Origin: a virus
Lineage: Duplodnaviria > Heunggongvirae > Uroviricota > Caudoviricetes
IMG/VR virus record: IMGVR_UViG_638341086_000008
Reading direction: 5' to 3' (one strand)
Length of the DNA: 49,769 bases
This document shows positions 1,234-19,528 of the stretch, piece by piece. The notes beneath the pieces are model-generated. The model had not been told where the DNA came from, did not search any database, and worked only from the letters and a program-made list of their open reading frames with translations. How positions within the stretch are numbered: position 1 is the first letter of the stretch; each line of letters opens with the position of its first letter. Position numbers and translations under genes: made by a program.

Positions 1234-2805
1234 ATGGACACCTCACTTGCTCATGAGAACGCCCGCCTGCGGGCACTGTTGCAGACGCAACAGGACACCA
1301 TCCGCCAGATGGCTGAATACAACCGCCTGCTCTCACAGCGGGTGGCGGCTTATGCTTCCGAAATCAACCGGCTGAAGGCGCTGGTTGCGAAACTGCAACG
1401 TATGCAGTTCGGTAAAAGCTCAGAAAAACTTCGTGCAAAAACCGAACGGCAGATACAGGAAGCACAGGAGCGAATCAGCGCACTTCAGGAAGAAATGGCG
1501 GAAACGCTGGGTGAGCAATATGACCCGGTACTGCCATCCGCCCTGCGCCAGTCTTCAGCCCGTAAACCGTTACCGGCCTCACTTCCCCGTGAAACCCGGG
1601 TTATCCGGCCGGAAGAGGAATGCTGTCCTGCCTGTGGTGGTGAACTCAGTTCTCTGGGATGTGATGTGTCAGAGCAACTGGAGCTTATCAGCAGCGCCTT
1701 TAAGGTTATCGAAACACAACGTCCGAAACAGGCCTGTTGCCGGTGCGACCATATCGTGCAGGCACCAGTACCTTCAAAACCCATTGCACGCAGTTATGCC
1801 GGAGCGGGGCTTCTGGCCCATGTTGTCACCGGGAAATATGCAGACCATCTGCCGTTATACCGCCAGTCAGAAATATACCGTCGTCAGGGAGTGGAGCTGA
1901 GCCGTGCCACACTGGGGCGCTGGACAGGTGCTGTTGCTGAACTGCTGGAGCCGCTGTATGACGTCCTGCGCCAGTATGTGCTGATGCCCGGTAAAGTCCA
2001 TGCTGATGATATCCCCGTCCCGGTCCAGGAGCCGGGCAGCGGTAAAACCCGGACAGCCCGGCTGTGGGTCTACGTCCGTGATGACCGTAACGCCGGTTCA
2101 CAGATGCCCCCGGCGGTCTGGTTCGCGTACAGTCCGGACCGGAAAGGTATCCATCCACAAAATCACCTGGCCGGTTACAGCGGTGTGCTTCAGGCCGATG
2201 CTTACGGTGGTTACCGGGCGTTATACGAATCCGGCAGAATAACGGAAGCCGCGTGTATGGCTCATGCCCGGAGAAAAATCCACGATGTGCATGCAAGAGC
2301 GCCCACCTACATCACCACGGAAGCCCTGCAGCGTATCGGTGAACTGTATGCCATCGAGGCAGAGGTCCGGGGCTGTTCAGCAGAACAGCGTCTGGCGGCA
2401 AGAAAAGCCAGAGCCGCGCCACTGATGCAGTCACTGTATGACTGGATACAGCAACAGATGAAAACACTGTCGCGTCACTCAGATACGGCAAAAGCGTTCG
2501 CATACCTGCTGAAACAGTGGGATGCACTGAACGTGTACTGCAGTAATGGCTGGGTGGAAATCGACAACAACATCGCAGAGAACGCCTTACGGGGAGTGGC
2601 CGTAGGCCGGAAAAACTGGATGTTCGCGGGTTCCGACAGCGGTGGTGAACATGCGGCGGTGTTGTACTCGCTGATCGGCACATGCCGTCTGAACAATGTG
2701 GAGCCAGAAAAGTGGCTGCGTTACGTCATTGAACATATCCAGGACTGGCCGGCAAACCGGGTACGCGATCTGTTGCCCTGGAAAGTTGATCTGAGCTCTC
2801 AGTAA
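1234..2805 (+). CDS. tnpC: IS66-family transposase TnpC (intact, 523 aa)
   Basis: N-terminal leucine-zipper-like region, CxxC...CxxC zinc-finger motifs, DDE-type core; full length with no frameshift, unlike copies 2 and 3. Confidence 0.85.
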
Positions 2806-2831
2806 ATATCAATACGGTTCTGACGAGTCGC

Positions 2832-4022
2832 TTACACCTGAAATACCATTTGCGCATCTGCATGGCCCATCTGGTTTGCTATAAATGCCGGGTTAGCACC
2901 AGCTGTCAGCGACCAGCAGGCATAAGTATGTCTCGACTGATATGATTTTCGATGGCGGAGTCCGGCACGTTTTATCGCTGCGTCCCACATCTGCCTTATT
3001 GAGTCAACGGTAAAATGGTCACCATAATTTTTTACTCTCGCTGACACTTCAGGTTGAAAAACAAAGGTGCATTTTTGTTTTTCTGTTCTGCCATACTCTC
3101 TGAGGTGAACATCAATGATATGCTCTTTGCTCAGTCTCGTTAATGTCATCTGACTCCGGAGAGCGTCGATTGCTGGCTTAATAAGATGAATGACCCGATT
3201 GGTTCCCGCCTGTGTTTTTGGTACCGTGAAACGGTCTTTTGCTAAATTTCTCCTGATCATCATTGTTCCATTTTTCAGATCTATGTCCTCCCATCCAAGT
3301 GCACACAGCTCACCAGGGCGAACGCCAGTATAAACAGAAACACACCATAAATTTTTTGCTTGCTGATTTCTGCACGCATCGATAAGACGGATAAATTCCT
3401 CCCGCGCAAGAGGATCCGGAATGGTTCTTGATTCCTTTAATGGCGAGATCCCCTTAAACGGATTATCTGCCAGGTAACCGTTATCAACACCAAACTGGAA
3501 CACGGCGTTAAGATTTGTCATGTAATTATTTACAGTTACAGCCGTTCTCCCTGGTTGTGTAACAATATAGTTACTTTTGGGGATCTGGTATCCAGTCAGT
3601 AGCTCTTTACGAACCTCCAGTAATTTTTCTTTATTAATCGATGAGGCAAGATTTTTTTCACCGATTATGCTCAGGATATTTTTGATGACGGCACGGTATG
3701 TGTTGAGTGATGTTTTGGCGACTTCAGTTTCTTTCAGTGCCAGAAATTTTTCAGCCAGTTCTTTTATGGTTAAATCTTGTCGGGCCTCACCAAATTTTTC
3801 CAGATTGCGTGAGGAGGGAAACTGTTTTGCATAGTCGAAAACACCAGTTTTTATTGCGTAACAAACAGAGGAGCGTAGTTCACCTGCAACGCGCCTGTTT
3901 TTTGCTGTGTCAGGAACCCCCAGATTTTCCCTGACTCTTACGCCTTTATAAACAAACCAGATACGTAATTTCCCTCCATGGTTTTCCACGCCTGTCGGAT
4001 ATTTCATTTCAACTTCTCTCAT
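2832..4022 (-). pseudogene. int: Prophage tyrosine integrase, truncated at the C-terminus by IS66 insertion (stop codon supplied by the IS terminus)
   Basis: 396-aa ORF with integrase boxes (..RHTYACWSL.., ..MGHADAQMVFQV) ends at a TAA lying inside the IS end (2832..2834); native int sequence starts at 2836; the catalytic Tyr codon lies in the displaced fragment at 20..130. Confidence 0.8.
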
Positions 4023-4365: not shown

Positions 4366-6837
4366 TTAAGAATCAGCCTGACTCGGGATCAGTTTTTGCC
4401 AGATAACTGAAACGTATTTTGCCTGGTAACGGGCGTCATCAAGTGCATTATGGCGCTCACCTTCGAATGGAATAGCCGTTCTGGCATCGAAGTCTATGGC
4501 TTTCCCCAGCTCAACGATTGTGCGTACATCGCGATCGTTGTAGTAACGCCACGGGCAGGGGATCCCCTGCCGTTCGTATGAACGGCGCAAAATCGTGTTG
4601 TCGAAGTTGGCTCCATTTCCCCAAACCTGAACAAAAAATTCACCGGAGTTTTCGTCGATAAATTCCCGCAATTGTAACAGTGCATCATCTAACGGGATTT
4701 CATCGGTCATAATGGCAGATTGCGCTTCGCGTGATTGCTTAAGCCACCATTTAATGGTGTCCCGATCAATGACTCCGCCAGCAGTTTCCAGATCGATAGT
4801 CTTACTAAATTCCGGTCCCATATCTCCGGTTTGCGGATCGAAAAATATTGCACCTATTGAGATGATCGGGGCATCAGGATTTTTTCCCATGGTTTCAAGG
4901 TCGATCATTAGATGGTCACACGTCCTGCTGGTGGATGTGATTTCGTGATGACCGTTCACCTTAATTGGGTGATCTGCCGTCTCGCCAGTTTCATTATCGC
5001 TATTGTGATGCTGATTGCCGCCAGTGTTCTCCTTGTGTGGATGTTCAGCGCCTTCCATTTCCTCCGGATCATCTTCCTGAACTTCAACCTGATACTCTTC
5101 ATCGAATGTTTCTTGGTATGTTGCGTCGCCCATCACCGCGCCACAATCAGGGCAGTTGCCGTCGCCGGTCTGACCGCAGGCGGTGCAGGCTTTTTCCACT
5201 TCCTGTTGCGCCACTGGTTCAGGCTGTTTCGTTTCTGGCTCGTTTTGTAACGCATTTGGACTGTTTTGTTCCGCTTTTTGGTAGTTCCGTTCCGATTCAT
5301 GCTGGTTCTGGTTCACAGAATCGCGGGTCTGGATCCCCTTAACCCATTTCGGATCATTCGGGTCACTAATCCCTTCAACAAATTCACCACGTGATGCAGC
5401 AAGCAACTTATCGGCGTCAGGCTGGCTGATATTGGCTGCCTGCATAATTTTGTTTACTTCGTCAGCGGTAACTTTTATCGGCTCTGGTTGTTCTGAATCT
5501 TCAGCGGTATCTACATTTTGCGGTAAGCCCGTGTATGTGCCATTTTTTCGGGCAAAATATTCTTCTTTTGTGATTTCAGTGGCGCCAGCAGCCAGTGCCT
5601 TATCCAGACCAGAAAGTTTGTTTGCGCGACCGTATTTTTCTCCGTCCTTATCTGCGAAGAGGAAATAGAACGGCCCCTCACGCTCTACAGATGGTTCAGC
5701 TTCCGGCGCGGTTTCATTTTTTGGGATATCAGATACCTCAGTTTCCACTGCATCAGTTTGTGTTTCTGATGACTGGAGAACATCAACAGTGCCCAGGTCT
5801 GTTTCTTCATTCTCAAACACGCCCTTTGTCGTCAGGTATTCGCAGATATATTTGTTCAGTGCTACGGGATCTTTGTGAATGTCGATCGGACGCTCACGGA
5901 CAAGGCCAAAAATAGTTTGGCGGTCGTAGCGAAGGGCATCAGGCTGTTTGCGCATTGATGCCGAGATACGCTTCCAGTCTTCGCGGTCGTTGTCGATAAC
6001 TTCTTTTTTTGCCCAGCGATGGATGCTGCCGTCAATGTTTCCGGCATCCACATCACCAGGCCAGAGAGCGTAGGCCAGTTCGTCATCCAGTGTTTTCCAT
6101 GTCTGCTTGTATTCGCGATGAATGGCAGCAATGACCGGGCTGATTTTTCCTGTTGAATTTTCAGTGTACTGTTGATTGGCTCTGGCGCGGGCGAGATCAA
6201 CAACAGACGTGTATTTTCCGGTTTCCTTGCGTTCACCTTCGCGACGTTTTTTCCAGATGCGCATCTCTGCCTGAATTTCGGGCCATTTAGCACCAGGAAT
6301 ACATTTATGCTTAACCCACCCAATGGCGTGCAACTTAAGCTCCGGATACATGGCGTTAACTTCTGGCATTTTCATCAACGCTTCAACGATATGTCCGTCG
6401 AATGTTGCCATGTCTTCCTGCAACAATTCCTGTGCGCTAATAACCATATCAACGGTGATGTTTTCACATGTGTCGAACTTAACCATGACAGCGTTCTGTA
6501 CTTCAGGGGCCAGCTTGTCAAAAGTGACGTTCATCGGATCGGATTCAGTCTCAACCGGGACAAAAGAAGCAGACTCCTCATCCCAGCGGTTTTCCTGCAT
6601 ATATTCAGCATCCCATGAATCGAGGGCAGGGCGGGGTATGCCAGGTTTATCCTCGCAGACAATAAATTTATAAGCGCAGTCCTGAGCAGCCGGATAATGT
6701 TCCAGGAACTGCCAGTGAAATTTTGCTCGAGCACGGCGTTCGTCGCCAGCTTCAATGGCTGTGGCTACAGCCACAGCGCCTTCTTCCCTTGTTGCCAGTT
6801 CGTCAGGAATAGCGGCGCAAATAAAGACTTTACTCAT
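4366..6837 (-). CDS. Large phage exonuclease-like protein: C-terminal DnaQ-like (DEDDh) 3'-5' exonuclease domain, central Cys4 zinc ribbon, long acidic linker
   Basis: 823-aa ORF; C-terminus carries exonuclease motifs (MIDLETMG..., ...HNALDDARY); CTACG...CPDCG zinc ribbon; position next to xis matches the early-left exo slot of lambdoid phages. Confidence 0.65.
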   Translation of the reverse strand: MSKVFICAAIPDELATREEGAVAVATAIEAGDERRARAKFHWQFLEHYPAAQDCAYKFIVCEDKPGIPRPALDSWDAEYMQENRWDEESASFVPVETESDPMNVTFDKLAPEVQNAVMVKFDTCENITVDMVISAQELLQEDMATFDGHIVEALMKMPEVNAMYPELKLHAIGWVKHKCIPGAKWPEIQAEMRIWKKRREGERKETGKYTSVVDLARARANQQYTENSTGKISPVIAAIHREYKQTWKTLDDELAYALWPGDVDAGNIDGSIHRWAKKEVIDNDREDWKRISASMRKQPDALRYDRQTIFGLVRERPIDIHKDPVALNKYICEYLTTKGVFENEETDLGTVDVLQSSETQTDAVETEVSDIPKNETAPEAEPSVEREGPFYFLFADKDGEKYGRANKLSGLDKALAAGATEITKEEYFARKNGTYTGLPQNVDTAEDSEQPEPIKVTADEVNKIMQAANISQPDADKLLAASRGEFVEGISDPNDPKWVKGIQTRDSVNQNQHESERNYQKAEQNSPNALQNEPETKQPEPVAQQEVEKACTACGQTGDGNCPDCGAVMGDATYQETFDEEYQVEVQEDDPEEMEGAEHPHKENTGGNQHHNSDNETGETADHPIKVNGHHEITSTSRTCDHLMIDLETMGKNPDAPIISIGAIFFDPQTGDMGPEFSKTIDLETAGGVIDRDTIKWWLKQSREAQSAIMTDEIPLDDALLQLREFIDENSGEFFVQVWGNGANFDNTILRRSYERQGIPCPWRYYNDRDVRTIVELGKAIDFDARTAIPFEGERHNALDDARYQAKYVSVIWQKLIPSQADS

Positions 6838-7146
6838 TTTGTTTTAACCTCATGACAGATTTAAGGATGAACAAATCCCTGCCATTGCTGGCATATAAGA
6901 ATGAAACCGGATATTTATTACGGAACTGTTTTAAAGACCTGCCGGGATTTCGATATTATCCTGGTGAATAACTTTATCGACCGGGTAACAGTTACCGGGA
7001 ATTTTCTGTTCGGTTGCTGCAGTCATACACTCCTGCATTGTCCTGTGAACACTGACTGCAATATCAACTGGCACTCCGGAAACAAGAAAAACTGAACCGC
7101 CCCGGGAATCCTGGAGACTAAACTTCCTGAGAAAGAGGTAAACAGG

Positions 7147-7473
7147 ATGACTAAAAATACTCGTTTTTCCCCTGAAGTCCGTCAACGGGCAGTCCGTATG
7201 GTTCTGGAAAGTCAGGGCGAATATGACTCACAATGGGCGACAATTTGTTCCATTGCTCCAAAGATTGGCTGTACGCCGGAGACTCTGCGTGTCTGGGTTC
7301 GCCAGCATGAGCGGGATACCGGGGGCGGTGATGGAGGGCTCACCACCGCTGAACGTCAGCGTCTGAAAGAGCTGGAGCGTGAAAATCGTGAACTGCGCCG
7401 CAGTAACGATATCCTTCGCCAGGCTTCCGCTTATTTTGCGAAGGCGGAGTTCGACCGCCTCTGGAAAAAATAA
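7147..7473 (+). CDS. IS629 OrfA (HTH/leucine zipper transposase subunit)
   Basis: 108 aa, [19 protein letters not shown]...; identical to the inverted copy at 17729..18055. Confidence 0.9.
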
Positions 7474-8360
7474 TGCCACTGCTGGATAAGCTGCGTGAGC
7501 AGTGCGGGGTCGGACCGGTATGCAGTGAACTGCATATTGCCCCGTCAACGTATTACCACTGTCAGCAACAGCGACATCATCCGGATAAACGCAGTGCCCG
7601 TGCGCAGCGCGATGACTGGCTGAAGAAAGAGATACAGCGCGTATACGATGAAAATCACAAGGTATACGGTGTGCGTAAAGTCTGGCGTCAGTTGTTACGG
7701 GAAGGTATCAGAGTGGCCAGATGCACTGTGGCACGTCTCATGGCGGTTATGGGACTTGCCGGTGTTCTCCGGGGTAAAAAGGTCCGTACGACCATCAGCC
7801 GGAAAGCCGTTGCCGCAGGCGACCGCGTAAACCGTCAGTTCGTGGCAGAACGACCTGACCAGCTGTGGGTGGCTGATTTTACTTACGTCAGCACATGGCA
7901 GGGCTTCGTCTATGTGGCGTTCATCATTGATGTGTTTGCCGGATACATTGTGGGGTGGCGGGTCTCATCGTCCATGGAGACGACATTCGTGCTGGATGCA
8001 CTGGAGCAGGCGTTATGGGCCCGTCGACCGTCCGGCACGGTCCATCACAGTGATAAAGGTTCTCAGTATGTATCGCTGGCCTACACACAGCGGCTTAAGG
8101 AAGCCGGATTACTGGCATCAACAGGAAGTACAGGCGACTCGTATGACAACGCGATGGCGGAGAGCATCAATGGTCTTTACAAAGCGGAGGTAATACACCG
8201 TAAGAGCTGGAAAAACCGTGCAGAAGTGGAACTGGCCACACTCACGTGGGTGGACTGGTATAACAATCGACGATTGCTGGAAAGGCTGGGCCATACTCCT
8301 CCGGCAGAAGCAGAAAAAGCTTATTATGCTTCCATCGGAAACGATGATCTGGCAGCCTGA
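7473..8360 (+). CDS. IS629 OrfB (DDE transposase catalytic subunit); probably expressed as OrfAB by -1 frameshift in the A6 run at 7464..7469
   Basis: 295 aa with DDE integrase core; reading frame is -1 relative to orfA; identical to the copy at 16842..17729. Confidence 0.9.
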   Translation: MPLLDKLREQCGVGPVCSELHIAPSTYYHCQQQRHHPDKRSARAQRDDWLKKEIQRVYDENHKVYGVRKVWRQLLREGIRVARCTVARLMAVMGLAGVLRGKKVRTTISRKAVAAGDRVNRQFVAERPDQLWVADFTYVSTWQGFVYVAFIIDVFAGYIVGWRVSSSMETTFVLDALEQALWARRPSGTVHHSDKGSQYVSLAYTQRLKEAGLLASTGSTGDSYDNAMAESINGLYKAEVIHRKSWKNRAEVELATLTWVDWYNNRRLLERLGHTPPAEAEKAYYASIGNDDLAA

Positions 8361-8431
8361 GTTCACAGATAAAACACTCTCCAGGAAACCCGGGGCGGTT
8401 CAGTATACGGCCATTTATACAGGAAAAGCCT

Positions 8432-8602
8432 ATGTCAGAACGTAAAAACTCAAAATCACGCCGTAATTATCTCGTTAAATGTTCCTGCCCAAACTGCACC
8501 CAAGAGTCAGAACACAGTTTTTCAAGAGTACAAAAAGGTGCCCTTTTGATCTGCCCTCATTGCAACAAAGTATTCCAGACAAATCTTAAAGCTGTAGCCT
8601 GA
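8432..8602 (+). CDS. Small zinc-ribbon protein (56 aa, CxxC...CxxC), hypothetical
   Basis: Manually translated ORF MSERKNSKSRRNYLVKCSCPNCTQESEHSFSRVQKGALLICPHCNKVFQTNLKAVA; below the 60-aa cut-off of the ORF track; two CxxC pairs. Confidence 0.35.
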   Translation: MSERKNSKSRRNYLVKCSCPNCTQESEHSFSRVQKGALLICPHCNKVFQTNLKAVA

Positions 8603-8659
8603 TTGATTTTATTAGTAACAAGTATTTTTTATATTTTAATAATATATTTAAAGCAGATA

Positions 8660-8684
8660 ATAAAAAACCCGCCTGAGCGGGTTT
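8660..8684 (-). terminator. Rho-independent terminator hairpin (AAACCCGC-ctga-GCGGGTTT) with flanking A/T runs, downstream of cspB
   Basis: Perfect 8-bp GC-rich stem, 4-nt loop, T-run on the minus strand. Confidence 0.5.
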
Positions 8685-8965
8685 GAGATTGTGGTGCTTT
8701 TTGTGGGAGTCATCCACTTACGCACTTTGTTTTGCCATGCCAGCAGTTAGCTTCTGCTGTAAAACTATTCATGCAGCAAACCTGCACTTCACCACAATGG
8801 TTAGCATACTTTTCCTGATTAAGATTTTGCCAAATATGCTAGCCATTGTTTCATGTATTGGACCTCCTTACTTTTTATTAAAGAGATCCAATATTCACTA
8901 CTCTGTCCGTATCTCTACTCAGGCATCAGCCTTCTTCGTTATCGTATACAGACGAGCGATGAATT

Positions 8966-9181
8966 TTAATCAGTAATGATGACATTTGCTGCTGCAGGAC
9001 CTTTAGCACCACTCTCTATAGAGAAGGTAACCTTTTGACCTTCAAATAAGGTTCGATAATTATCATTCTGAATCGCAGAAAAATGCACAAACACATCTTT
9101 ACTACCATCAACAGGAGAAATAAAGCCGAAACCTTTATCAGCGTTAAACCATTTTACTAAACCAGTCATTTTATTTGACAT
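8966..9181 (-). CDS. cspB: Cold-shock protein CspB-like (CspA family)
   Basis: 71 aa, [21 protein letters not shown]... with RNP1/RNP2 cold-shock domain motifs. Confidence 0.85.
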
Positions 9182-9481
9182 TCTACATTCCTTAACTTGA
9201 GCCTTTCGGCATAAATGGTTTGCATAACAGAAACGACTTCGTACTTAATTGGAGAGACTCAAAGAAGGAATAAGTGAATAACACCTGAAATGAGAACTGC
9301 TTTAGTAAACTACTTCGTATATCGTCTGTTCTTCAAACCGACGCAATCATTAACGCATAGTTGAACATATGAAGCAATGTTTATTTTAGACATCCAGCCA
9401 TCTTCAACCCCATCAAAAAACTATAGCTTTCTTCAGGAACGTGTGTATAGTGCGCCAAGTTATCAGTATTAAGGAATTTTT

Positions 9482-9694
9482 TTGTCCCGTAAAATGACAG
9501 GAATTGTCAAAACCTTTGACGGCAAAAGCGGCAAGGGTCTTATCACCCCATCCGATGGTCGTATCGATGTCCAGCTTCATGTTTCAGCGCTCAATCTCCG
9601 CGATGCAGAAGAAATTACCACCGGATTACGCGTGGAATTTTGCCGGATAAATGGTCTGCGTGGCCCTTCAGCTGCCAATGTTTACCTTTCATGA
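9482..9694 (+). CDS. cspF: Cold-shock-like protein CspF-like
   Basis: 70 aa, [23 protein letters not shown]...; divergently arranged with cspB as in Qin-type prophages. Confidence 0.8.
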
Positions 9695-9978
9695 GCTATA
9701 TTAAAGCTTTAATTTCAGGCCCCATCGGATCACACATGGAGAGTTTTTATGAATAACCCCGTCTGTCTTGATGACTGGTTGATTGGCTTTAAAAGCTTAT
9801 GCTGTACTTTGGCCGTAATAGCTCTGCTAATAATATAATAAGCAGACTCATTGTGTTTAGGGACATTGTACTGGAAGAAAACATTTTAAACATCAGGCAA
9901 ATAACCAAGTCACCAGCTAAATAATAAGTTAACAGACATGAGTCCCGGGATGAGATTCAACATTACCATTGCCCCATT

Positions 9979-10009
9979 TAAAGCACAAAACCCGCTCATC
10001 AGCGGGTTT
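9979..10009 (-). terminator. tR'-like intrinsic terminator just downstream of the late promoter (possibly bidirectional)
   Basis: Hairpin AAAACCCGC-tcatca-GCGGGTTTT followed by a T-rich tract on the minus strand; sits about 40 nt downstream of the predicted promoter, as lambda tR' follows pR'. Confidence 0.55.
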
Positions 10010-10055
10010 TCTACTTTTTCTTAACGTCGGGTATACAAAGCCCATCGTTGAAAAA

Positions 10056-10084
10056 ATTTTATCCATATTTTTTGAAAAATGCAA
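10056..10084 (-). promoter_or_regulatory. Candidate Q-dependent late promoter (pR'-like): TTGCAT - 17 bp - TAAAAT
   Basis: Sigma70-like -35/-10 with 17-bp spacer, immediately downstream of the antiterminator Q gene and upstream of the hairpin at 9979..10009. Confidence 0.5.
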
Positions 10085-10115
10085 ACATCATGTCGCCATC
10101 TTCAGCAAAAATCAT

Positions 10116-10868
10116 TTATCTCGTCACCTTCCTCAATTGCGCTTCCGCGTATGCTTCTTCCTGCCAGCACTTTGTTACCAGTTTACCAATGACGTCCGCA
10201 TACCCCTTATACCACTGATAATCGGTCAGGTCTGGTACCAGCTTCTGGACATGACGTCGTGCCAGCGTGGTCGGTAAACGACTAAACCGGTTTCCATTAC
10301 AACGCCCACAAATCTTATATACCGGTACGCCATGAAACCGGGTTCTTTTTTCATCCAGAACAATCCCTTTACCCTTACACCCTCTGCACGCTGTGCTGAC
10401 TTCGCCCTTACCATGGCAATGCTGACATAGTTCCTTCACCCATTCTTCCTTGATTACAGATTCCCCGCGTCTGTAGTGTTTCACCACTTCGCGCAATACA
10501 TTATAAAATCCCGTACCTGAACAATGCTCACAGCGAGCCTTACTTGCCGCAGACCTGGAGTAATCAGCAAAGGCAAAACTCACGAGGTAAGGAATAATCT
10601 GTAACCGGATTTCTTCACTCAATTTGTTCAATGTCGGGTTATCCAGTGCCATCGCGTAATTTAGCAGGCCTTCAATCGCAAACTGAGGGTCCTGAACACC
10701 AACTTTTGCCAGAAATAAGGCCAACCCAAGTGGTGCTTTCGACTGCACCATCCCCTGCGCTGCCATTACATCCGTAATTGTTAAACAACCGGTGCCTGTC
10801 GCTGGAGCGTCATCGCTCAATTTTGGAGATTTTGGGGAGTAATATTTTGGTAAGGCTTCAAGGTTCAT
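10116..10868 (-). CDS. quuQ: Late-gene antitermination protein Q homologue
   Basis: ORF with multiple CxxC zinc-binding motifs (CEHCSGTG, CQHCHGKG, CRGCKGKG, CGRCNG); start taken at the internal Met (MNLEALPKYY) giving ~250 aa; position upstream of the pR'/tR' pair. Confidence 0.75.
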   Translation of the reverse strand: MNLEALPKYYSPKSPKLSDDAPATGTGCLTITDVMAAQGMVQSKAPLGLALFLAKVGVQDPQFAIEGLLNYAMALDNPTLNKLSEEIRLQIIPYLVSFAFADYSRSAASKARCEHCSGTGFYNVLREVVKHYRRGESVIKEEWVKELCQHCHGKGEVSTACRGCKGKGIVLDEKRTRFHGVPVYKICGRCNGNRFSRLPTTLARRHVQKLVPDLTDYQWYKGYADVIGKLVTKCWQEEAYAEAQLRKVTR

Positions 10869-10881
10869 GCTCGTTCTCCAC

Positions 10882-11931
10882 TTACGCCAGTACGCCAATT
10901 GCCAGCGCGCGATCGATAAAACGAAATATCAGCTCCAGTTGGGAGCCATACTTATCTTCAAATGCCACTGTATCCGTATGCAGCTCGTTGTGATGCTTTC
11001 TGCACAAAGGCAACACAAAGAGATCATGTGCTTTTGTTCCCATTCCGCCCTGCCCGTGACCAATCAGATGATGCGGATCGTCGGCTGGCATACCGCAGCA
11101 AGCACACGGCTGTGTCTTAACCCAACGTGTGTATTTCTCCTTAACCCAGCGGCGACGTTTAGGCAGCTTCATGAAAGATTCCGGAGACTCTGGATCAACG
11201 GTGATGCTTACCACCGTCTTTTCCTGTGGTGATTTTTGTTGCTGGTGGGCGTAAGGCAACGGTGCAAGATTTTTTGTGCGTTGTTTCAATATGCTGGTGG
11301 CGGTCTGCTCTCCCGGTACGATGTCGCTTTCGCGGTACACCGAGCAGATTTTTTCCGCTGGTAATCCCAGCGAACGACGCGATACAGCCTCAGGTAGTGC
11401 ATCCACCACCTGATTGCAGACCGCCCACCAGGATAATTCAGCCAAAGATAATTCCCGCTCCTGCGTACCGCTTATTGCGTGACGGATGACGTCAATCACC
11501 CATGCTGTCAGATTTTGTTGAGCAAGCAGCTCCAGTGATTCCGATGTCTGGTCACGCAGTTGGTTGTCGCAGTGCCAGCACAACACCATTGCGCCGGTAC
11601 CATAACGGTGAATGACTGTTTCAGTGTGATGGTAATCGCCATTAGGCCACTGGCAGGATGTAACATGACGTAATAGCCAGTCGGACAATGCGCCAACGCC
11701 GCCAGCAGCACGAATCACCCGTTCGTTACTAAAAAACGGCAGCAATGTTTTGTCTTCCGCCAGCGGCTGGCGAACGGCAGGAACGACTCCGGATGGCAGA
11801 TTACGCATGCTTTTTGGTTCCGGTTCCACCAGCACTCGAGGATTATGAAATATCTGTATGGATTCACGGCCCGGCTTAAGGACCACCAGCCCAAGCTCAG
11901 GCACCAGAACAGGTCTAAGTAATACCCGCAC
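10882..11931 (-). CDS. ydfU: DUF968-family prophage protein (YdfU-like), C-terminal Cys/His-rich motif
   Basis: Long ORF with C-terminal ...CACCGMPADDPHHL...CRKHHNELH; start placed at the GTG at 11931..11929 preceded by GGAGG, giving 349 aa and removing the overlap with the upstream ORF. Confidence 0.7.
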   Translation of the reverse strand: MRVLLRPVLVPELGLVVLKPGRESIQIFHNPRVLVEPEPKSMRNLPSGVVPAVRQPLAEDKTLLPFFSNERVIRAAGGVGALSDWLLRHVTSCQWPNGDYHHTETVIHRYGTGAMVLCWHCDNQLRDQTSESLELLAQQNLTAWVIDVIRHAISGTQERELSLAELSWWAVCNQVVDALPEAVSRRSLGLPAEKICSVYRESDIVPGEQTATSILKQRTKNLAPLPYAHQQQKSPQEKTVVSITVDPESPESFMKLPKRRRWVKEKYTRWVKTQPCACCGMPADDPHHLIGHGQGGMGTKAHDLFVLPLCRKHHNELHTDTVAFEDKYGSQLELIFRFIDRALAIGVLA

Positions 11932-11932
11932 G

Positions 11933-12211
11933 TTACCTCCAGATCCGTTGCTGGAAAGTGCGGGACGCACGTGGTGGGCGTTCGGAATAAGGCAGCCTGA
12001 CAGAGATTATCCAGTGCCGATAGTCGAGACTGAGAGCTTTCTTAACCTCGAACCCGCGCCTGCGGTAAGAATGAATCAGCCATTCGGCCTGTTCTGCAGT
12101 GCATGGAGGGTGCTGGAACCATTCAGACTTGAATGCGTGAGAATACCGCCCGTGCGTGCAGGCAAGAACGGGCGAATTATCAGAATTGTAATATTTTGCG
12201 TTGCGTGCCAT
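11933..12211 (-). CDS. Hypothetical phage protein (92 aa) immediately upstream of ydfU
   Basis: ORF with GGAG 8 nt upstream of the ATG; stop abuts the proposed ydfU start; no function assignable. Confidence 0.45.
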   Translation of the reverse strand: MARNAKYYNSDNSPVLACTHGRYSHAFKSEWFQHPPCTAEQAEWLIHSYRRRGFEVKKALSLDYRHWIISVRLPYSERPPRASRTFQQRIWR

Positions 12212-12277
12212 CGGTTTTCTCCGGTGGCACGGTGTTACTCAGCGGGAGTTCAGCCCCGCGCAAGATTGTAGATGAGT

Positions 12278-12529
12278 TTATTCTCCTGAAAAAGCAGAAA
12301 AGCCAGCTTTTATTCCGATCTCTTTCAATGCCTGTAATGAAGTGACAAACTCACCTTCGCGCAAGATAAATCCGTCCGTGACCCGAGCATCCACAAAATT
12401 AATTAACGCAGCCCCATTCTTTCGCAAACACATAATGCGGTAATGACTAACAAGATTTCCATTTTCAACGCACACAGCATAGAGGCCATCTTCACAAAAA
12501 ATTTTACGCAGTTCTTCGATGTTCATCAT
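12278..12529 (-). CDS. rem: Rem-like small prophage protein
   Basis: 83 aa, MMNIEELRKIFCEDGLYAVCVENGN...; position between ydfU and hokD as in Qin. Confidence 0.65.
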   Translation of the reverse strand: MMNIEELRKIFCEDGLYAVCVENGNLVSHYRIMCLRKNGAALINFVDARVTDGFILREGEFVTSLQALKEIGIKAGFSAFSGE

Positions 12530-12640
12530 CAGAATCCTTCCGGATAATTAGCTCTCCCCTTTAAGGGACCATCCCTCTTATCCCTGCGCGCTACTTAAGT
12601 ATTTTTGATTCTATTCCGGCACCGTCCAGAACTTCAAACG

Positions 12641-12677
12641 CGTTGAAAATAAAAACAAAAACCCGCCGAAGCGGGTT
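12641..12677 (-). terminator. Rho-independent terminator downstream of the relB-relE-hokD operon
   Basis: Hairpin AACCCGC-cgaa-GCGGGTT followed on the minus strand by TTTTTGTTTTTATTTTC. Confidence 0.6.
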
Positions 12678-12745
12678 AAGTGCGGGTGCGTTGAGGATGC
12701 CTGCCACATCAGAGGTGGCGAGGGATTTCTCCCCCGCCGGGTCTC

Positions 12746-12901
12746 TTACTCCTCAGGTTCGTAAGCTGTGAAGACAGCGACCTCCGTCTGGCCGGTTCGG
12801 ATTCGTACCTCGCAGAGGTCTTTCCTCGTTACCAGTGCCGTCACTATGACGGTTAAACAGATGACGATCAGGGCGATTAACATCGCCTTTTGCTGCTTCA
12901 T
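12746..12901 (-). CDS. hokD: Hok-family membrane toxin (HokD/RelF-like), 51 aa
   Basis: Manual translation gives MKQQKAMLIALIVICLTVIVTALVTRKDLCEVRIRTGQTEVAVFTAYEPEE; absent from the ORF track because it is under 60 aa; a spurious plus-strand ORF (12768..12989) overlaps it. Confidence 0.85.
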   Translation of the reverse strand: MKQQKAMLIALIVICLTVIVTALVTRKDLCEVRIRTGQTEVAVFTAYEPEE

Positions 12902-12972
12902 AGCCTGCTTCTCCTGTCAACGCAAAGCAGAAGTGTCACCTTCGGTGCGAAACAGAGATGTCATGCTTTGGT

Positions 12973-13260
12973 TCAGAGAATGCGTTTGACCGCCTCGCTA
13001 TATACTTCCGAGCGTTCTCTTTTCCCAACAGAAATCACGAAAACGACAACTTTCTCGTCTATAACCTGGTATACAAGGCGATAGCCTGAAGACCGGAGCT
13101 TAATCTTGTAACAATCAGGCATACCACGGAGCTTGTTTGCTTCAATCCGGGGTGACTCAAGTACTTCAACCAGCTTCTTTTTCAACTGTTCACGTACCGT
13201 CGAGCCCAGCTTTCGCCATTCCTTTAGTGCCCGCTCGTCAAAATCCAGAAAATACGCCAT
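12973..13260 (-). CDS. relE: RelE mRNA interferase toxin
   Basis: 95 aa, MAYFLDFDERALKEWRKL...; ATGA overlap with relB (shared position 13260). Confidence 0.9.
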   Translation of the reverse strand: MAYFLDFDERALKEWRKLGSTVREQLKKKLVEVLESPRIEANKLRGMPDCYKIKLRSSGYRLVYQVIDEKVVVFVISVGKRERSEVYSEAVKRIL

Positions 13261-13499
13261 CAGAGTTCATCCAGCGTCACACGTACTGGCTTAGGATTAC
13301 GAAGCCGTTCTTTCACTATCTCCACAAGTTCAGCATCTTCATCACTCAGGAGTGTCTGTTTGAACGGCAAGCGTTCATTGTCAGCGATATACTCGAGCAT
13401 GAGACGAAGCGCTTCAGAAGGAGTTACACCCATTTTTTCAAGCGCGGCGTAAGAACGCGCTTTAAGTTCATCGTCAATACGCAGGTTAATGCTACCCAT
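13260..13499 (-). CDS. relB: RelB antitoxin
   Basis: 79 aa, MGSINLRIDDELKARSYAALEKMGVTPSEALR...; RHH-type antitoxin upstream of relE. Confidence 0.9.
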   Translation of the reverse strand: MGSINLRIDDELKARSYAALEKMGVTPSEALRLMLEYIADNERLPFKQTLLSDEDAELVEIVKERLRNPKPVRVTLDEL

Positions 13500-13510
13500 G
13501 TCTTACACCT

Positions 13511-13536
13511 CTTGTAATTACAAATGTCATTACAAG
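13511..13536 (-). promoter_or_regulatory. relO-like operator: inverted TTGTAAT repeats (CTTGTAATTACAAATGTCATTACAAG) immediately upstream of relB
   Basis: Palindromic hexad repeats within 12-40 bp of the relB start codon, typical of the RelB/RelE autoregulated operator. Confidence 0.55.
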
Positions 13537-13829
13537 TATCGCACTACAACATGCTTAGGGCAAGTCACGAAGGAAGTCAGAAAGTAGTCGTAAGAACGGT
13601 GATCACTGTCCGCTTTGTGCCAGGAGCAGCCATTGCTAAGTCCATCCTGTATTGTGCAGGTCAGCTCGTTTTTAAAGAGTCCGGCCATCATCTTACTGGT
13701 ACAGACACCATATACTTTGTGACGGTCAGGCTACATATGCACAACTCAACTTATTCATCTATTTTTTGCTTTAGCATGTCAGTGTTGCTTTCTCGTCGGC
13801 GGGTGAGCGGTGACCTGACCTGTCGATAA
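13524..13829 (+). CDS. Hypothetical 101-aa ORF divergent from relB (possibly ydfV-like)
   Basis: Open reading frame only; start codon lies inside the relO palindrome; no recognisable motif. Kept at low confidence. Confidence 0.25.
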   Translation: MSLQVSHYNMLRASHEGSQKVVVRTVITVRFVPGAAIAKSILYCAGQLVFKESGHHLTGTDTIYFVTVRLHMHNSTYSSIFCFSMSVLLSRRRVSGDLTCR

Positions 13830-14101
13830 AGGAACGTAGCACGTTTTATGCAACACCCGCATGCGGCAGAAAATTATTGCCGAACGTTTACCCCTGTCAA
13901 CAAGCTTTACTTTCTGAGGCGCGCCAGCCCGCGAGGAAAACAATCTGAACATCAAACAATTAATGACACAAGAAATACGATTAAAGATTTTTTTGTGCAT
14001 GCCGATAGTGCTTTTTGTAAGCGTAAACTGACCGCCGTATGTAGCCATCAGACGAGAATTGGTAACTTAGACGCCCATCTGATATAGACGGACATCTAAG
14101 T

Positions 14102-14527
14102 ATGGAATTACAGGACTGGCGAAAAGAACCTCGTAAAAACTATTCGAATGAATTCAAACTTCGTATGGTGGAACTGGCATCACAACCTGGAGCTTGTGTT
14201 GCACAGATTGCACGTGAAAATGGCGTCAATGATAATGTTATTTTCAAATGGCTCAGGCTCTGGCAGAACGAAGGGCGTGTTTCGCGGCGTCTTCCGGTAA
14301 CGACCTCTTCTGACACTGGCGTTGAATTATTACCTGTAGAAATAACGCCGGATGAGCAGAAAGAACCTGTGGCGGCCATTGCGCCGTCTTTATCCACTTC
14401 CACTCAGACCAGAGTCAGTGCCAGTTCCTGCAAGGTGGAATTCCGTCACGGTAACATGACGCTGGAAAATCCATCGCCAGAGCTGCTCACAGTGTTGATC
14501 CGTGAACTGACCGGGAGGGGAAGATGA
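14102..14527 (+). CDS. tnpA: IS66-family TnpA (copy 2)
   Basis: 141 aa; HTH region ASQPGACVAQIARENGVNDNVIFKWLR. Confidence 0.8.
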   Translation: MELQDWRKEPRKNYSNEFKLRMVELASQPGACVAQIARENGVNDNVIFKWLRLWQNEGRVSRRLPVTTSSDTGVELLPVEITPDEQKEPVAAIAPSLSTSTQTRVSASSCKVEFRHGNMTLENPSPELLTVLIRELTGRGR

Positions 14528-14874
14528 TCTCACTCCCATCAGGTACCCGTATCTGGCTCGTTGCCGGCGTTACCGATATGCGTAAATCCTTCAACGGACT
14601 GGGAGAACAGGTACAACATGTGCTGAATGATAATCCCTTCTCCGGTCACCTGTTTATCTTCCGTGGCCGACGGGGTGACACCGTCAAAATTCTTTGGGCT
14701 GATGCTGATGGTCTGTGCCTGTTCACCAAACGCCTGGAGGAAGGCCAGTTTATCTGGCCTGCGGTACGTGACGGCAAGGTATCCATTACCCGCTCGCAAC
14801 TGGCAATGCTCCTCGATAAGCTGGACTGGCGTCAGCCAAAAACATCCAGCCGTAACTCACTGACAATGTTGTAA
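14524..14874 (+). CDS. tnpB: IS66-family TnpB (copy 2)
   Basis: 116 aa; MISLPSGTRIWLVAGVTDMRKSFNGL... conserved with the other copies; ATGA overlap with tnpA. Confidence 0.85.
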   Translation: MISLPSGTRIWLVAGVTDMRKSFNGLGEQVQHVLNDNPFSGHLFIFRGRRGDTVKILWADADGLCLFTKRLEEGQFIWPAVRDGKVSITRSQLAMLLDKLDWRQPKTSSRNSLTML

Positions 14875-14904
14875 AAAACTCCTGACCGCATTATAAAAAC
14901 GGTC

Positions 14905-16517
14905 ATGAGTCAGAAATACCTCATTCGCATCGCAGAGCTGGAAAGGTTGCTCTCTGAGCAGGCTGAAGCCCTCCGTCAGAAAGACCAGCAACTGAGTCTG
15001 GTTGAAGAGACGGAAGCCTTCCTGCGCTCTGCACTGACACGTGCCGAAGAAAAGATCGAAGAAGATGAACGGGAAATAGAACATCTGCGGGCTCAGATAG
15101 AAAAACTGCGCCGGATGCTGTTCGGTACCCGTTCTGAAAAACTGCGTCGTGAAGTTGAACTGGCTGAGGCTCTGCTGAAACAACGTGAACAGGACAGCGA
15201 TCGTTACAGTGGGCGGGAAGACGATCCTCAGGTTCCCCGCCAGTTGCGACAGTCGCGCCATCGTCGTCCGTTACCGGCACACCTTCCCCGTGAAATACAC
15301 CGCCTGGAGCCAGAAGAAAGCTGTTGCCCGGAGTGTGGCGGTGAGCTGGATTATCTGGGGGAAGTCAGCGCTGAACAGCTGGAACTGGTGAGCAGTGCCC
15401 TGAAAGTGATCCGCACAGAACGGGTAAAAAAAGCCTGTACAAAATGTGACTGTATTGTTGAAGCACCGGCGCCGTCCCGCCCGATAGAGCGTGGTATCGC
15501 GGGCCCCGGATTACTTGCCCGCGTGTTAACGGGAAAATACTGCGAACATCTGCCACTGTATCGTCAGAGTGAAATCTTTGCCCGCCAGGGTGTCGAACTG
15601 AGCCGGGCCTTACTCTCCAACTGGGTTGACGCGTGCTGCCAGTTAATGACACCGGTGATGATGCCCTGTACCGTTATGTAATGAACACCCGCAAGGTTCA
15701 CACTGATGACACACCGGTAAAGGTACTGGCACCGGGTCAGAAAAAGGCGAAAACAGGGCGTATCTGGACGTATGTCCGGGATGATCGCAATGTGGGTTCG
15801 TCATCTCCTCCAGCGGTCTGGTTCGCGTACTCGCCGAACCGGCAGGGGAAACACCCGGAGCAACACCTCCGCCCCTTCCGGGGTATCCTGCAGGCGGATG
15901 CGTTCACAGGTTACGACAGGTTGTTCAGTGCAGAACGTGAAGGTGGTGCACTGACAGAAGTTGCGTGCTGGGCCCATGCCCGGCGAAAAATCCACGATGT
16001 ATACATCAGCAGCAAAAGTGCGACGGCAGAAGAAGCCCTGAAGCGAATCAGTGAACTGTACGCCATCGAGGATGAAATACGGGGATTACCGGAGTTAGAG
16101 CGTCTTGCCGTCAGGCAGCAGCGAAGCAAAGTGTTACTGACGTCGCTGCATGAATGGATGGTGGAGAAGAATGGTACGCTGTCGAAAAAATCCAGACTGG
16201 GCGAAGCGTTCAGCTATGTACTGAATCAGTGGGATGCCCTCTGTTATTACAGTGATGACGGTCTGGCGGAGGCGGATAATAATGCTGCGGAAAGAGCGCT
16301 TCGTGCAGTCTGTCTCGGAAAGAAAAACTTTATGTTCTTTGGCAGCGATCACGGCGGCGAGCGTGGAGCACTGTTGTACGGGCTGATCGGCACCTGCCGT
16401 CTGAACGGTATCGATCCGGAAGCGTATCTGCGCCATATCCTGAGCGTACTGCCGGAATGGCCTTCCAACCGAGTTGATGAACTCCTGCCATGGAACGTAG
16501 TACTCACCAATAAATAA
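14905..16517 (+). pseudogene. tnpC: IS66-family transposase TnpC (copy 2), interrupted by a frameshift near 15633..15681
   Basis: Two overlapping ORFs (14905..15681 and 15633..16517) together cover the full TnpC alignment seen in copy 1; the frame changes where copy 1 reads ..[14 protein letters not shown]... Confidence 0.75.
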
Positions 16518-16570
16518 GCGTCAATACGGTGCTCCGTTGACGCTTACTGCTTTTTTAAAAGGAGAAATCT

Positions 16571-16799: not shown

Positions 16800-16841
16800 T
16801 GAACCGCCCCGGGTTTCCTGGAGAGTATTTTATCTGTGAAC

Positions 16842-17729
16842 TCAGGCTGCCAGATCATCGTTTCCGATGGAAGCATAATAAGCTTTTTCTGCTTCTGCCG
16901 GAGGAGTATGGCCCAGCCTTTCCAGCAATCGTCGATTGTTATACCAGTCCACCCACGTGAGTGTGGCCAGTTCCACTTCTGCACGGTTTTTCCAGCTCTT
17001 ACGGTGTATTACCTCCGCTTTGTAAAGACCATTGATGCTCTCCGCCATCGCGTTGTCATACGAGTCGCCTGTACTTCCTGTTGATGCCAGTAATCCGGCT
17101 TCCTTAAGCCGCTGTGTGTAGGCCAGCGATACATACTGAGAACCTTTATCACTGTGATGGACCGTGCCGGACGGTCGACGGGCCCATAACGCCTGCTCCA
17201 GTGCATCCAGCACGAATGTCGTCTCCATGGACGATGAGACCCGCCACCCCACAATGTATCCGGCAAACACATCAATGATGAACGCCACATAGACGAAGCC
17301 CTGCCATGTGCTGACGTAAGTAAAATCAGCCACCCACAGCTGGTCAGGTCGTTCTGCCACGAACTGACGGTTTACGCGGTCGCCTGCGGCAACGGCTTTC
17401 CGGCTGATGGTCGTACGGACCTTTTTACCCCGGAGAACACCGGCAAGTCCCATAACCGCCATGAGACGTGCCACAGTGCATCTGGCCACTCTGATACCTT
17501 CCCGTAACAACTGACGCCAGACTTTACGCACACCGTATACCTTGTGATTTTCATCGTATACGCGCTGTATCTCTTTCTTCAGCCAGTCATCGCGCTGCGC
17601 ACGGGCACTGCGTTTATCCGGATGATGTCGCTGTTGCTGACAGTGGTAATACGTTGACGGGGCAATATGCAGTTCACTGCATACCGGTCCGACCCCGCAC
17701 TGCTCACGCAGCTTATCCAGCAGTGGCAT
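16842..17729 (-). CDS. IS629 OrfB (copy 2)
   Basis: Protein identical to 7473..8360. Confidence 0.9.
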   Translation of the reverse strand: MPLLDKLREQCGVGPVCSELHIAPSTYYHCQQQRHHPDKRSARAQRDDWLKKEIQRVYDENHKVYGVRKVWRQLLREGIRVARCTVARLMAVMGLAGVLRGKKVRTTISRKAVAAGDRVNRQFVAERPDQLWVADFTYVSTWQGFVYVAFIIDVFAGYIVGWRVSSSMETTFVLDALEQALWARRPSGTVHHSDKGSQYVSLAYTQRLKEAGLLASTGSTGDSYDNAMAESINGLYKAEVIHRKSWKNRAEVELATLTWVDWYNNRRLLERLGHTPPAEAEKAYYASIGNDDLAA

Positions 17730-18055
17730 TATTTTTTCCAGAGGCGGTCGAACTCCGCCTTCGCAAAATAAGCGGAAGCCTGGCGAAGGATATCGTTACT
17801 GCGGCGCAGTTCACGATTTTCACGCTCCAGCTCTTTCAGACGCTGACGTTCAGCGGTGGTGAGCCCTCCATCACCGCCCCCGGTATCCCGCTCATGCTGG
17901 CGAACCCAGACACGCAGAGTCTCCGGCGTACAGCCAATCTTTGGAGCAATGGAACAAATTGTCGCCCATTGTGAGTCATATTCGCCCTGACTTTCCAGAA
18001 CCATACGGACTGCCCGTTGACGGACTTCAGGGGAAAAACGAGTATTTTTAGTCAT
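17729..18055 (-). CDS. IS629 OrfA (copy 2)
   Basis: Protein identical to 7147..7473. Confidence 0.9.
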
Positions 18056-18645
18056 CCTGTTTACCTCTTTCTCAGGAAGTTTAGTCTCCAGGATTCCCGG
18101 GGCGGTTCACGCTGCCGTCAGAGGCAAAACAACCAAAACCGCCGAAGGAATGCTCACCAACATGCTCGGAGATATTGCAGCAGAAGCTCAGCTTTATGCT
18201 GAAATTGCTGACGAACGCTACATCGCAGGAGTGACTTGTCAACAGATCTATGAATCTTTAAGAGATAAAAAGCATCAAATGTAGGGTAATATTAAATCGG
18301 AACATTTACATCGCGGAATGTAAAATTTGAATAAAAAGGACTCTTCCATGAGCCAAAATTCCTGAAATCTTAAGGGTAAGATAAAAGGTCTTAATCAGAA
18401 TGACACGTTTTATTAATAAATAAAGCTATTCTTTCATTGCTGTGTTTTTCTTTACAAAAGTAATCCTTGCTATGGGTGGTTAATCATGCGTTAATGGTGT
18501 TCTGGTTTGTTACAAATTTATCTGAAGCAGTCATTGTTATAATTTTATTATTTGTACCTCTTGAGATTTCCTTGTTGGTTTTTCTCTCTGATATTTTTTT
18601 CGGACCATTCTGCCCAAGGGCTAATTTCTTCAAAAGGTAATAATT

Positions 18646-18858
18646 ATGTCTAACAAAATGACTGGTTTAGTGAAATGGTTTAACCCTGAAAAAGGTTTTG
18701 GTTTCATCACGCCGAAAGATGGCAGCAAAGATGTGTTTGTCCATTTCTCAGCAATTCAGAGCAACGATTTCAAAACATTAACTGAGAATCAGGAAGTTGA
18801 ATTTGGTATTGAGAACGGACCTAAAGGTCCTGCCGCTGTTCATGTAGTGGCGCTTTGA
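18646..18858 (+). CDS. cspI: Cold-shock protein CspI-like (CspA family)
   Basis: 70 aa, [34 protein letters not shown]...; long AT-rich 5' leader typical of cold-shock genes. Confidence 0.8.
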
Positions 18859-19129
18859 GGTAGACAATATTACAAACCATATTCACTTTAGATGCCCGTG
18901 TTGTCATGGTTCCCAGTATAGAACATCATCTTTTGATGTTTCTGACATGAATCCTTTCGGGGCAAAATGTATCTTTTGTAAATCAATGATGATTACATTT
19001 GATAATATTTCACAATACTTAAATGCCAGCCGTCTGTCGTTGGATTTAAAAAAGTGAAAATGAAGGCTCCTTCGGGAGCTTTTTTGCTTGGTGTCTATTC
19101 GATGGATACTCACATACTACGGTAACATC

Positions 19130-19360
19130 ATGAAAAAAATCATAGTTTTTTTTAACTCTGAACCAGCAGTGGTAGTGCCAGCGATGACTGGAGTTAACAC
19201 CATCATGCGTGAATATCCAAATGGCGAAAAAACACACCTTACTGTAATGGCCGCAGGGTTTCCATCTCTGACCGGAGATCATAAAGTCATTTATGTAGCC
19301 GCGGATCGACATGTTACTTCAGAAGAAATTCTGGAAGCAGCAATAAGGCTCTTGAGTTGA
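19130..19360 (+). CDS. Small hypothetical prophage protein (ynfN-position ORF)
   Basis: ORF from the internal Met MKKIIVFF...; assigned by its position between cspI and gnsB; weak ribosome-binding site. Confidence 0.3.
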   Translation: MKKIIVFFNSEPAVVVPAMTGVNTIMREYPNGEKTHLTVMAAGFPSLTGDHKVIYVAADRHVTSEEILEAAIRLLS

Positions 19361-19528
19361 TTTGATGCTATTGCATTGATAATTCAGGAAAATTCTCTTT
19401 GTCTGTTTGTGTAAAATTTAGACTATCGTATGTTGATTATTGCGATGTTTCATCTTATCTTTTACACGTTTGCACCATATAATCGACTTACTGTGTAACT
19501 GGAAAGTCATAACAGACTAAAAGAGGAA

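Follow-up and report, generated by a model that had tools for sequence, protein, structure and literature searches.

The late control region of a 49,769-nucleotide stretch of viral DNA (IMG/VR record IMGVR_UViG_638341086_000008, Caudoviricetes; the whole stretch is called the window below) was analyzed. In this region a gene for a Q-type antiterminator is followed, on the minus strand, by a promoter and a terminator that resemble pR' and tR' of phage lambda. From the comparison of sequences, we consider it very probable that the region is the canonical Q-dependent late-gene switch of a lambdoid prophage of the Qin family, in a copy broken by the insertion sequence (IS) IS629. Elements of this kind are already known, and the prophage family is a well-known one; Qin is said to have been named for the Q-independent lambda hybrids of Kaiser, in 1980 (a work cited in PMC6379469); if so, late genes of lambda can be driven from the Qin Q and late promoter, and the K-12 copy of the module would be functional. 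A first-pass annotation of this DNA had described the succession, on the minus strand, of Q, TTGCAT-17 bp-TAAAAT and a hairpin with a T-tract, and this description is confirmed by the coordinates, by the register with lambda pR' and by the predicted fold of the RNA. The elements of the switch are listed here in the direction of transcription:

10116..10868, minus strand: Q antiterminator gene, homologue of ydfT/quuQ (ATG at 10868, stop at 10116; 250 amino acids, intact).
10084-10079, minus strand: pR' -35 hexamer TTGCAT, which aligns with lambda TTGACT and is present in all relatives inspected.
10078-10062, minus strand: 17-bp spacer, a candidate Q-binding element (QBE) from its position, by analogy with lambda.
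10061-10056, minus strand: pR' -10 hexamer TAAAAT, in the same register as lambda TAAATT; relatives have TAAGAT or TAGGAT.
10055-10050, minus strand: gap TTTTTC between the -10 hexamer and the pause element.
10049-10041, minus strand: sigma-dependent pause element AACGAT followed by GGG, AACGATGGG, matching lambda pR'.
10006-10001 / 9996-9991, minus strand: core stem of the tR' hairpin CCCGCT-GATG-AGCGGG, with loop GAUG; A-U pairs extend it to 10010-9987 (-14.8 kcal/mol).
9990-9980, minus strand: U-tract UUUUGUGCUUU / TTTTGTGCTTT, predicted 3' end of the RNA.

The pause element and the promoter stand to each other as in lambda. The sequence CAACGATGGG is identical to that of lambda pR', lies 6 bp past the -10 hexamer in both, and has no other exact copy in the window. 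AACGAT is the sigma-dependent pause element of lambda and is conventionally numbered +1 to +6, so that transcription is predicted to start at 10049 and to pause near 10034/10033. In K-12 MG1655 the start would fall near position 1,642,422 (minus strand), by an offset of 1,632,373 from the window, derived from the ynfS coordinates of PMC6001520. When a 60-mer of lambda pR' was compared without gaps to both strands of the 49.8-kb window, the top match (35 of 60 bases) fell exactly at pR', a score attained by none of 200,000 shuffled sequences. The presence of a lambda pR'/tR' arrangement directly behind Q, as first proposed, is borne out by this match and by the identical pause element; the promoter lies 32-62 bp past the Q stop. 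In lambda the QBE sits between the -35 and -10 elements of pR'. The corresponding spacer of the window has the same base as lambda at 11 of 17 positions and a different one at six, and it is near-invariant among close relatives. An open reading frame (ORF) of 51 amino acids with a TTG start (9929-10084, minus strand; 6817-6972 in locus L003) overlaps pR', the leader and tR', and is annotated as 'hypothetical protein' in PhiR42_1. It has no PHROG match, begins upstream of the predicted transcription start, and is probably not a gene.

The tR' hairpin begins at about +40 from the predicted start, in agreement with the distance of about 40 nt given in the first-pass annotation. The same length had been proposed for the terminated RNA, and this part did not hold: with the predicted ends, the transcript would be ~67 nt long (65-70 nt). 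The 70-nt RNA 10049-9980 folds with -29.7 kcal/mol, compared to -12.9 +/- 2.5 kcal/mol in shuffled sequences (z = -6.6), and its predicted fold consists of a 5' stem-loop, an A-rich single-stranded stretch, the terminator hairpin and a U tail. The stem is kept in eight sequence variants, without double compensatory changes, and the SfV and Ayreon records carry the annotation 'terminator' at the corresponding position. In the Qin lineage an A-run borders the stem; it is missing in SfV-type phages. The linker from the pause element to the hairpin varies freely among relatives. No Rfam family was found on the pR'-tR' RNA (9980-10049) at a permissive threshold, and no description of this promoter or of its RNA was found in the literature on quuQ/ydfT, on the Qin cold-shock (csp) genes and on late promoters of cryptic prophages. 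On the plus strand the hairpin is also scored as a terminator downstream of cspF/ynfS (AAAACCCGCTCATCAGCGGGTTTT with tail CTACTTTTTC), and in the Qin lineage it is probably a bidirectional terminator for convergent transcription.

To judge from its matches, the product of the Q gene is a member of the Q-lambda family. The Pfam scan gave PF03589 (Antiterm) with 181.8 bits for a cut-off of 26.7 (E=2.6e-54) and a secondary match, DnaJ_CXXCXGXG; the comparison with PHROG 127, 'anti-termination protein Q-like', gave E=2.8e-106. Among solved structures the top match is Q-lambda (PDB 7ubm, E=4.7e-36). The alignment with 7ubm_Q is composed of two blocks, residues 1-120 of the query with 1-125 of the chain and residues 160-250 with 117-207 of the chain, residues 121-159 being skipped. 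Identity is 41% to Q-lambda, 95% to SfV Q and 94% to Ayreon Q, and a single residue separates the protein from K-12 QuuQ/YdfT. The ligands of the zinc-ribbon arm of Q-lambda (C161, C164, C187 and C190) are invariant in the alignment. The arm also contains a 47-amino-acid insert with two extra CxxC motifs, absent from Q-lambda (residues ~114-160; window 10388-10528, minus strand). The gene is full-length, with no sign of decay. In PMC9388147, PF03589 corresponds to the Q-lambda family, PF06530 to Q21 and PF06323 to Q82. Neither PF06530 nor PF06323 was matched by Q in the Pfam scan, which returned PF03589 and DnaJ_CXXCXGXG only. A Q of the phage 82 type, expected initially, was ruled out by the Pfam and PDB matches, which are to the Q-lambda family.

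Sigma-70 RNA polymerase would initiate constitutively at pR' (~10049), as deduced from lambda and from Stx phages, and would pause at about +16/17 when sigma region 2 re-binds the -10-like AACGAT, as in lambda. Without Q, transcription would stop at tR' and leave the RNA of ~67 nt. Once made, Q would bind the promoter spacer and load on the paused complex, and the polymerase would become resistant to the terminator. In intact relatives the Q-modified transcript would pass through a slot for cargo ('moron') genes before it reaches those for holin, lysozyme and the head; in the window, read-through would enter IS629, then what remains of ydfD, the exonuclease gene and int. In Stx phages pR' is constitutive and its transcripts are terminated at tR' in lysogens (PMC7547250). 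Q-dependent cassettes are defined in PMC9388147 by the Q gene, pR', the sigma-dependent pause element, the terminator and the late genes, and the QBE is described there. By this composition, the window cassette is a truncated member of the class.

The distribution of the cassette among relatives was then considered. Viral relatives were 80 IMG/VR loci encoding a Q 94-100% identical to that of the window. The core motif is present in 71 of them, and seven more have variants at the same positions, so that 78 of 80 loci retain the cassette; in the remaining two, one contig stops at the Q stop and one was unparsable. The variants of the seven loci are a -10 hexamer TAGGAT, a pause element AATGAT or GACGAT, and another hairpin, CCUCGC-UUCG-GCGGGG with a U-tract. 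One sub-lineage (L072, L078, L080, L083 and L084, at ~3753-3900; Q 95% identical) has both TAGGAT and this hairpin, which is unrelated to that of the window and lies at an unchanged distance from the pause element. It looks like the replacement of a terminator whose position was conserved.

The sequence right after the U-tract differs among lineages. A DNA search in phage genomes gave 35 records, including SfV, mEp460, Ayreon, 2H10, Tritos, PhiR42_1 and 15 Stx2c-converting phages, and most of the matches run from the gene upstream of Q to position 914 of the query, i.e. 9987 in the window, the last base of the hairpin. The pattern is the one of a regulatory module that has been conserved, with a boundary for recombination and cargo behind it. 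At least 80% of the region 8900-10900 is present in 1,555 of 5,426 complete Escherichia coli (E. coli) genomes, and in many E. coli the conservation of the module is 99.9-100%.

We compared the cassette to three known systems. With lambda it shares the Q family, the identity extending across the N-terminal segment, the body and the zinc-ribbon arm, the position of the Q gene directly upstream, the 17-bp spacer, the place of the pause element and an intrinsic terminator ahead of the late genes. It differs from lambda in the terminator, which is ~194 nt from the start in lambda and ~40-67 nt in the window, in the second CxxC pair carried by the Q insert, in the TTGACT at the pause element, which is not conserved, and in the lack of late genes behind it. 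With Qin of K-12 it has 99.9% DNA identity over 8403-14020 (5,618 bp), and the succession of genes from ynfU through ydfV is unchanged (ynfU-cspB-cspF-ydfT-ydfU-rem-hokD-relEB-ydfV). However, the lysis cassette right behind and the dicA/dicC immunity region are still present in K-12, whereas the window has lost both and has the segment in inverted orientation between its two IS629 copies. On these alignments the window element can be assigned to the Qin cryptic prophage lineage. Finally, SfV, Ayreon, mEp460, PhiR42_1 and the Stx2c and Stx2k phages have a Q gene ~90-99.9% identical in DNA, with the same pR', pause element and tR'. In PhiR42_1 the cargo between tR' and the holin gene consists of csp genes, as in Qin; in the others the cargo is different, and no homology to the window extends past the terminator. 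Lysis genes are retained in all.

Several observations weigh against a canonical switch. The -35 hexamer is weak (3-4 of 6), a generic promoter scan reports the promoter as TTTGCA-18-TAAAAT (9/12), and promoter-like sites are not enriched in the region (8 versus 5.7 +/- 2.3 in shuffled sequences), so that the hexamers by themselves prove nothing. Lambda has a -35-like TTGACT beside the pause element, which is the site of sigma region 4 repositioning. In the window this place is occupied by TTTTTT (TTTTTT or TTTTCC across the Q lineage). Because of this absence and of the 47-amino-acid insert in the Q arm, the geometry of loading may differ from that of lambda. The U-tract is broken after 4 U and is the weakest among the variants seen, relatives having 5-7 U; termination may therefore be leaky. 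Lastly, the cro/pR region, the normal early source of Q transcription, is deleted, and a terminator is found after hokD at 12677-12660, which makes the route of Q expression in the window questionable. The placement of the elements in the register of lambda is nevertheless far above chance.

A weak but full-length Rfam match to isrK was observed between hokD and rem (12656-12737, minus strand; 25.1 bits for a gathering score of 50, E=0.0017 in a 401-bp stretch). The 3' hairpin of this match is the terminator at 12677-12660, and a promoter-like site comes next, at 12637-12608. In Salmonella Gifsy-1, IsrK heads an operon controlling an antiterminator Q; the isrK-like stretch could bear on Q expression in Qin.

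The genes located beyond tR' were then considered. They are, in the order in which read-through would meet them:

9749..9838, plus strand: ynfS, a small ORF of 29 amino acids, antisense to read-through; its translation is the YnfS listed in PMC6001520.
9482..9694, plus strand: cspF, antisense to read-through (Pfam CSD, E=5.6e-22; annotated cspF in K-12, O39 and O26).
8950..9342, minus strand: cspB with a cspA-type 5' untranslated region thermoregulator (coding sequence 8966-9181; Pfam CSD, E=9.8e-32).
8684-8665, minus strand: intrinsic terminator after cspB, AAACCCGCTCAGGCGGGTTT + TTTATTATCT.
8432..8602, plus strand: ynfU, antisense to read-through (Pfam PF23499 YnfU, E=3.5e-31).

The path announced for read-through, antisense through cspF, then through cspB and into IS629, is in accordance with the orientations of the genes. 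It had been taken as a rewiring of the late module onto cold-shock genes, and this was not supported. In Qin of K-12 the order is ydfT (Q), ynfS/cspF (opposite strand), cspB, ynfU (opposite strand), the essD holin gene, ydfR, the rrrQ lysozyme gene, rzpQ and cspI. The same order is found in O39:NM F8704-2 (with an IS in ydfR), in O26:H11 11368 and in the 48.7-kb phage PhiR42_1 (where the terminase comes next), and at least 49 of the 80 IMG/VR loci have Q, cspF (-), cspB (+), ynfU (-), holin, YdfR and lysozyme. The leader of cspB matches Rfam RF01766 with 158.8 bits for a gathering score of 78 (9342-8950), and promoter-like hexamers TTGCTT...GTTAAT are present just upstream of it. As cspB has its own cspA-type leader and terminator, and as the same order precedes lysis genes in relatives, the csp genes appear to be autonomous passengers between tR' and the lysis genes, and not new targets of the switch. 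In the Qin lineage the order Q-cspF-cspB-ynfU is ancestral.

The slot between tR' and the holin gene has other contents elsewhere: orf47/orf48 in SfV, hypothetical ORFs and a putative methylase in Ayreon, three tRNAs and stx2A/B in phiSTEC1575-Stx2k. In these three phages the holin gene comes next after the cargo. A second cold-shock cluster was seen at 18646-19705 (plus strand), with cspI, ymcF/ynfQ, ynfN and gnsB; it is found past the second IS629, with the rzpQ remnant on one side and the terminase gene on the other. Cargo of the csp type thus flanks the lysis cassette of the Qin late region at either end.

The absence of late lysis genes behind the switch, as noted in the first-pass annotation, is correct for the window, where the terminator of cspB, ynfU (antisense), IS629, the ydfD remnant, the exonuclease gene and int are found downstream of cspB. 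The features involved are distributed as follows:

7093..8402, plus strand: IS629/IS1203 copy A, at the site where the holin gene essD comes in relatives; it has the ALIL frameshift pseudoknot and the ends TGAACCGCC...GGCGGTTCA.
16800..18109, minus strand: IS629/IS1203 copy B, inverted; it truncates flxA and, at its other end, rzpQ.
8403: junction corresponding to position 3852 of O26 11368, in the essD-ynfU intergenic region.
16799: junction corresponding to position 9708 of O26 11368, inside flxA.
18110: junction corresponding to position 2279 of O26 11368, inside rzpQ, inverted.
7094: junction corresponding to position 15871 of O26 11368, inside ydfD, inverted.
18111..18284, plus strand: 3' remnant of rzpQ (last 57 codons), the sole surviving piece of the lysis cassette; it faces away from Q.
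4366..7092, minus strand: ydfD remnant (7092-6931, 53 codons) and intact 823-amino-acid exonuclease gene (PF16473), downstream of pR' on the same strand.

The two IS629 copies are 100% identical and inverted, and they bracket an 8.4-kb segment that is itself inverted relative to both flanks. Two blocks of O26 11368 are missing: 2280-3851, with the 5' part of rzpQ, rrrQ, ydfR and essD, and 9709-15870, with the end of flxA, ydfW, the cro/cI-like genes, ydfA and dicB. Head and tail genes are on the other side of the segment and face away from pR'. Lysis and morphogenesis genes are thus absent downstream of pR' in the window; they are present there in all intact relatives inspected. The IS629 junctions were found in none of the 5,426 complete E. 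coli genomes, three apparent full-length hits being two-piece joins to IS copies within DUF1327/ydfR, just past essD. No target-site duplication was found around either IS629 copy, whether in the direct or in the swapped (post-inversion) pattern, which fits IS-adjacent deletions. By these junctions, the lysis genes were lost through an IS629-associated deletion and inversion private to this strain, which is decay and not a selected new wiring.

Two further observations concern the rearranged region. YdfD is a lysis protein in K-12. An ORF of 84 amino acids (6931-7185, minus strand) begins in the end of IS629 and runs into the ydfD remnant, a fusion made by the rearrangement. An element of the IS66 family lies at 14021-16544, between ydfV and flxA, with ORFs at 14102-14527, 14524-14874 and 14905-16517, the last one apparently split; this insertion is absent at the same place in K-12 and in O26 11368.

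Other explanations were weighed. The first, compatible with the Q-dependent switch, is that the ~67-nt pR'-tR' RNA is itself the retained function, as a constitutive, trans-acting (Hfq-dependent?) small RNA (sRNA). We consider it improbable; its precedent is StxS. In Stx phages the pR'-tR' transcript is processed to StxS, a 74-nt Hfq-binding RNA, and its authors propose that such RNAs may be common (PMC7547250); in both systems a short RNA is expected constitutively from the late promoter and ends at tR' in the lysogen. The predicted layout of the RNA, with its stem-loop, A-rich stretch and U-tailed hairpin, is in favor of this idea, as is the conservation of the module in many E. coli, and a retained function would explain why the module is intact in cryptic Qin prophages. 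In the Stx case pR' and tR' are 258 nt apart and RNase E processing gives the 74 nt; the primary transcript predicted for the window already has ~67 nt. Against the idea, 9980-10049 has no Rfam family, the linker is free to vary among relatives, and recent common descent of the Qin prophages explains the conservation equally well.

A wider version, to which we give somewhat less credit still, is that the module is kept in cryptic Qin for a benefit to the host, either by a StxS-like sRNA or by occasional Q expression that would couple prophage or stress signals to cspB (sense) and to cspF, ynfS and ynfU (antisense). If this were true, the csp slot would be a genuine Q-controlled regulon and not a passive passenger.

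Outright repurposing of Q, pR' and tR' for cold-shock control, with read-through activating cspB and silencing cspF by antisense, is very unlikely. The geometry permits it, since the transcript would have the sense orientation at cspB and the antisense one at cspF, ynfS and ynfU, and no lysis genes are left downstream in the window. But the same order with lysis genes is the norm in K-12, O26, O39, PhiR42_1 and at least 49 of the 80 viral loci, cspB has its own leader and promoter-like hexamers, the loss of the lysis genes is an IS629 event seen in none of the 5,426 genomes and so without evolutionary depth, and the early promoter from which Q would be transcribed has been lost by deletion. 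We give least credence of all to chance hexamers ahead of a hairpin that would only terminate the convergent plus-strand cspF-ynfS transcript: the hairpin is scored as a plus-strand terminator and promoter-like sites are not enriched, but promoter, pause element and hairpin also lie behind Q in phages without cspF (SfV, Ayreon, the Stx2k phage), and the lambda pR' register is highly non-random.

The Q-dependent switch of the Qin family is thus retained as the explanation, and with regard to cold-shock control the result is mostly a clean negative: an apparent late switch aimed at cold-shock genes corresponds to the standard Qin architecture, to which strain-private IS629 damage was added. In the slot between tR' and the holin gene, Qin has csp genes where Stx2k phages have stx2; the Stx2c records are unannotated. 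The short pR'-tR' RNA is a candidate prophage sRNA. The Q of Qin, SfV and Stx2c phages, with its doubled zinc-finger arm, an exact lambda pause element and no -35-like site for sigma region 4, would be a natural variant for the model of Q-lambda loading.

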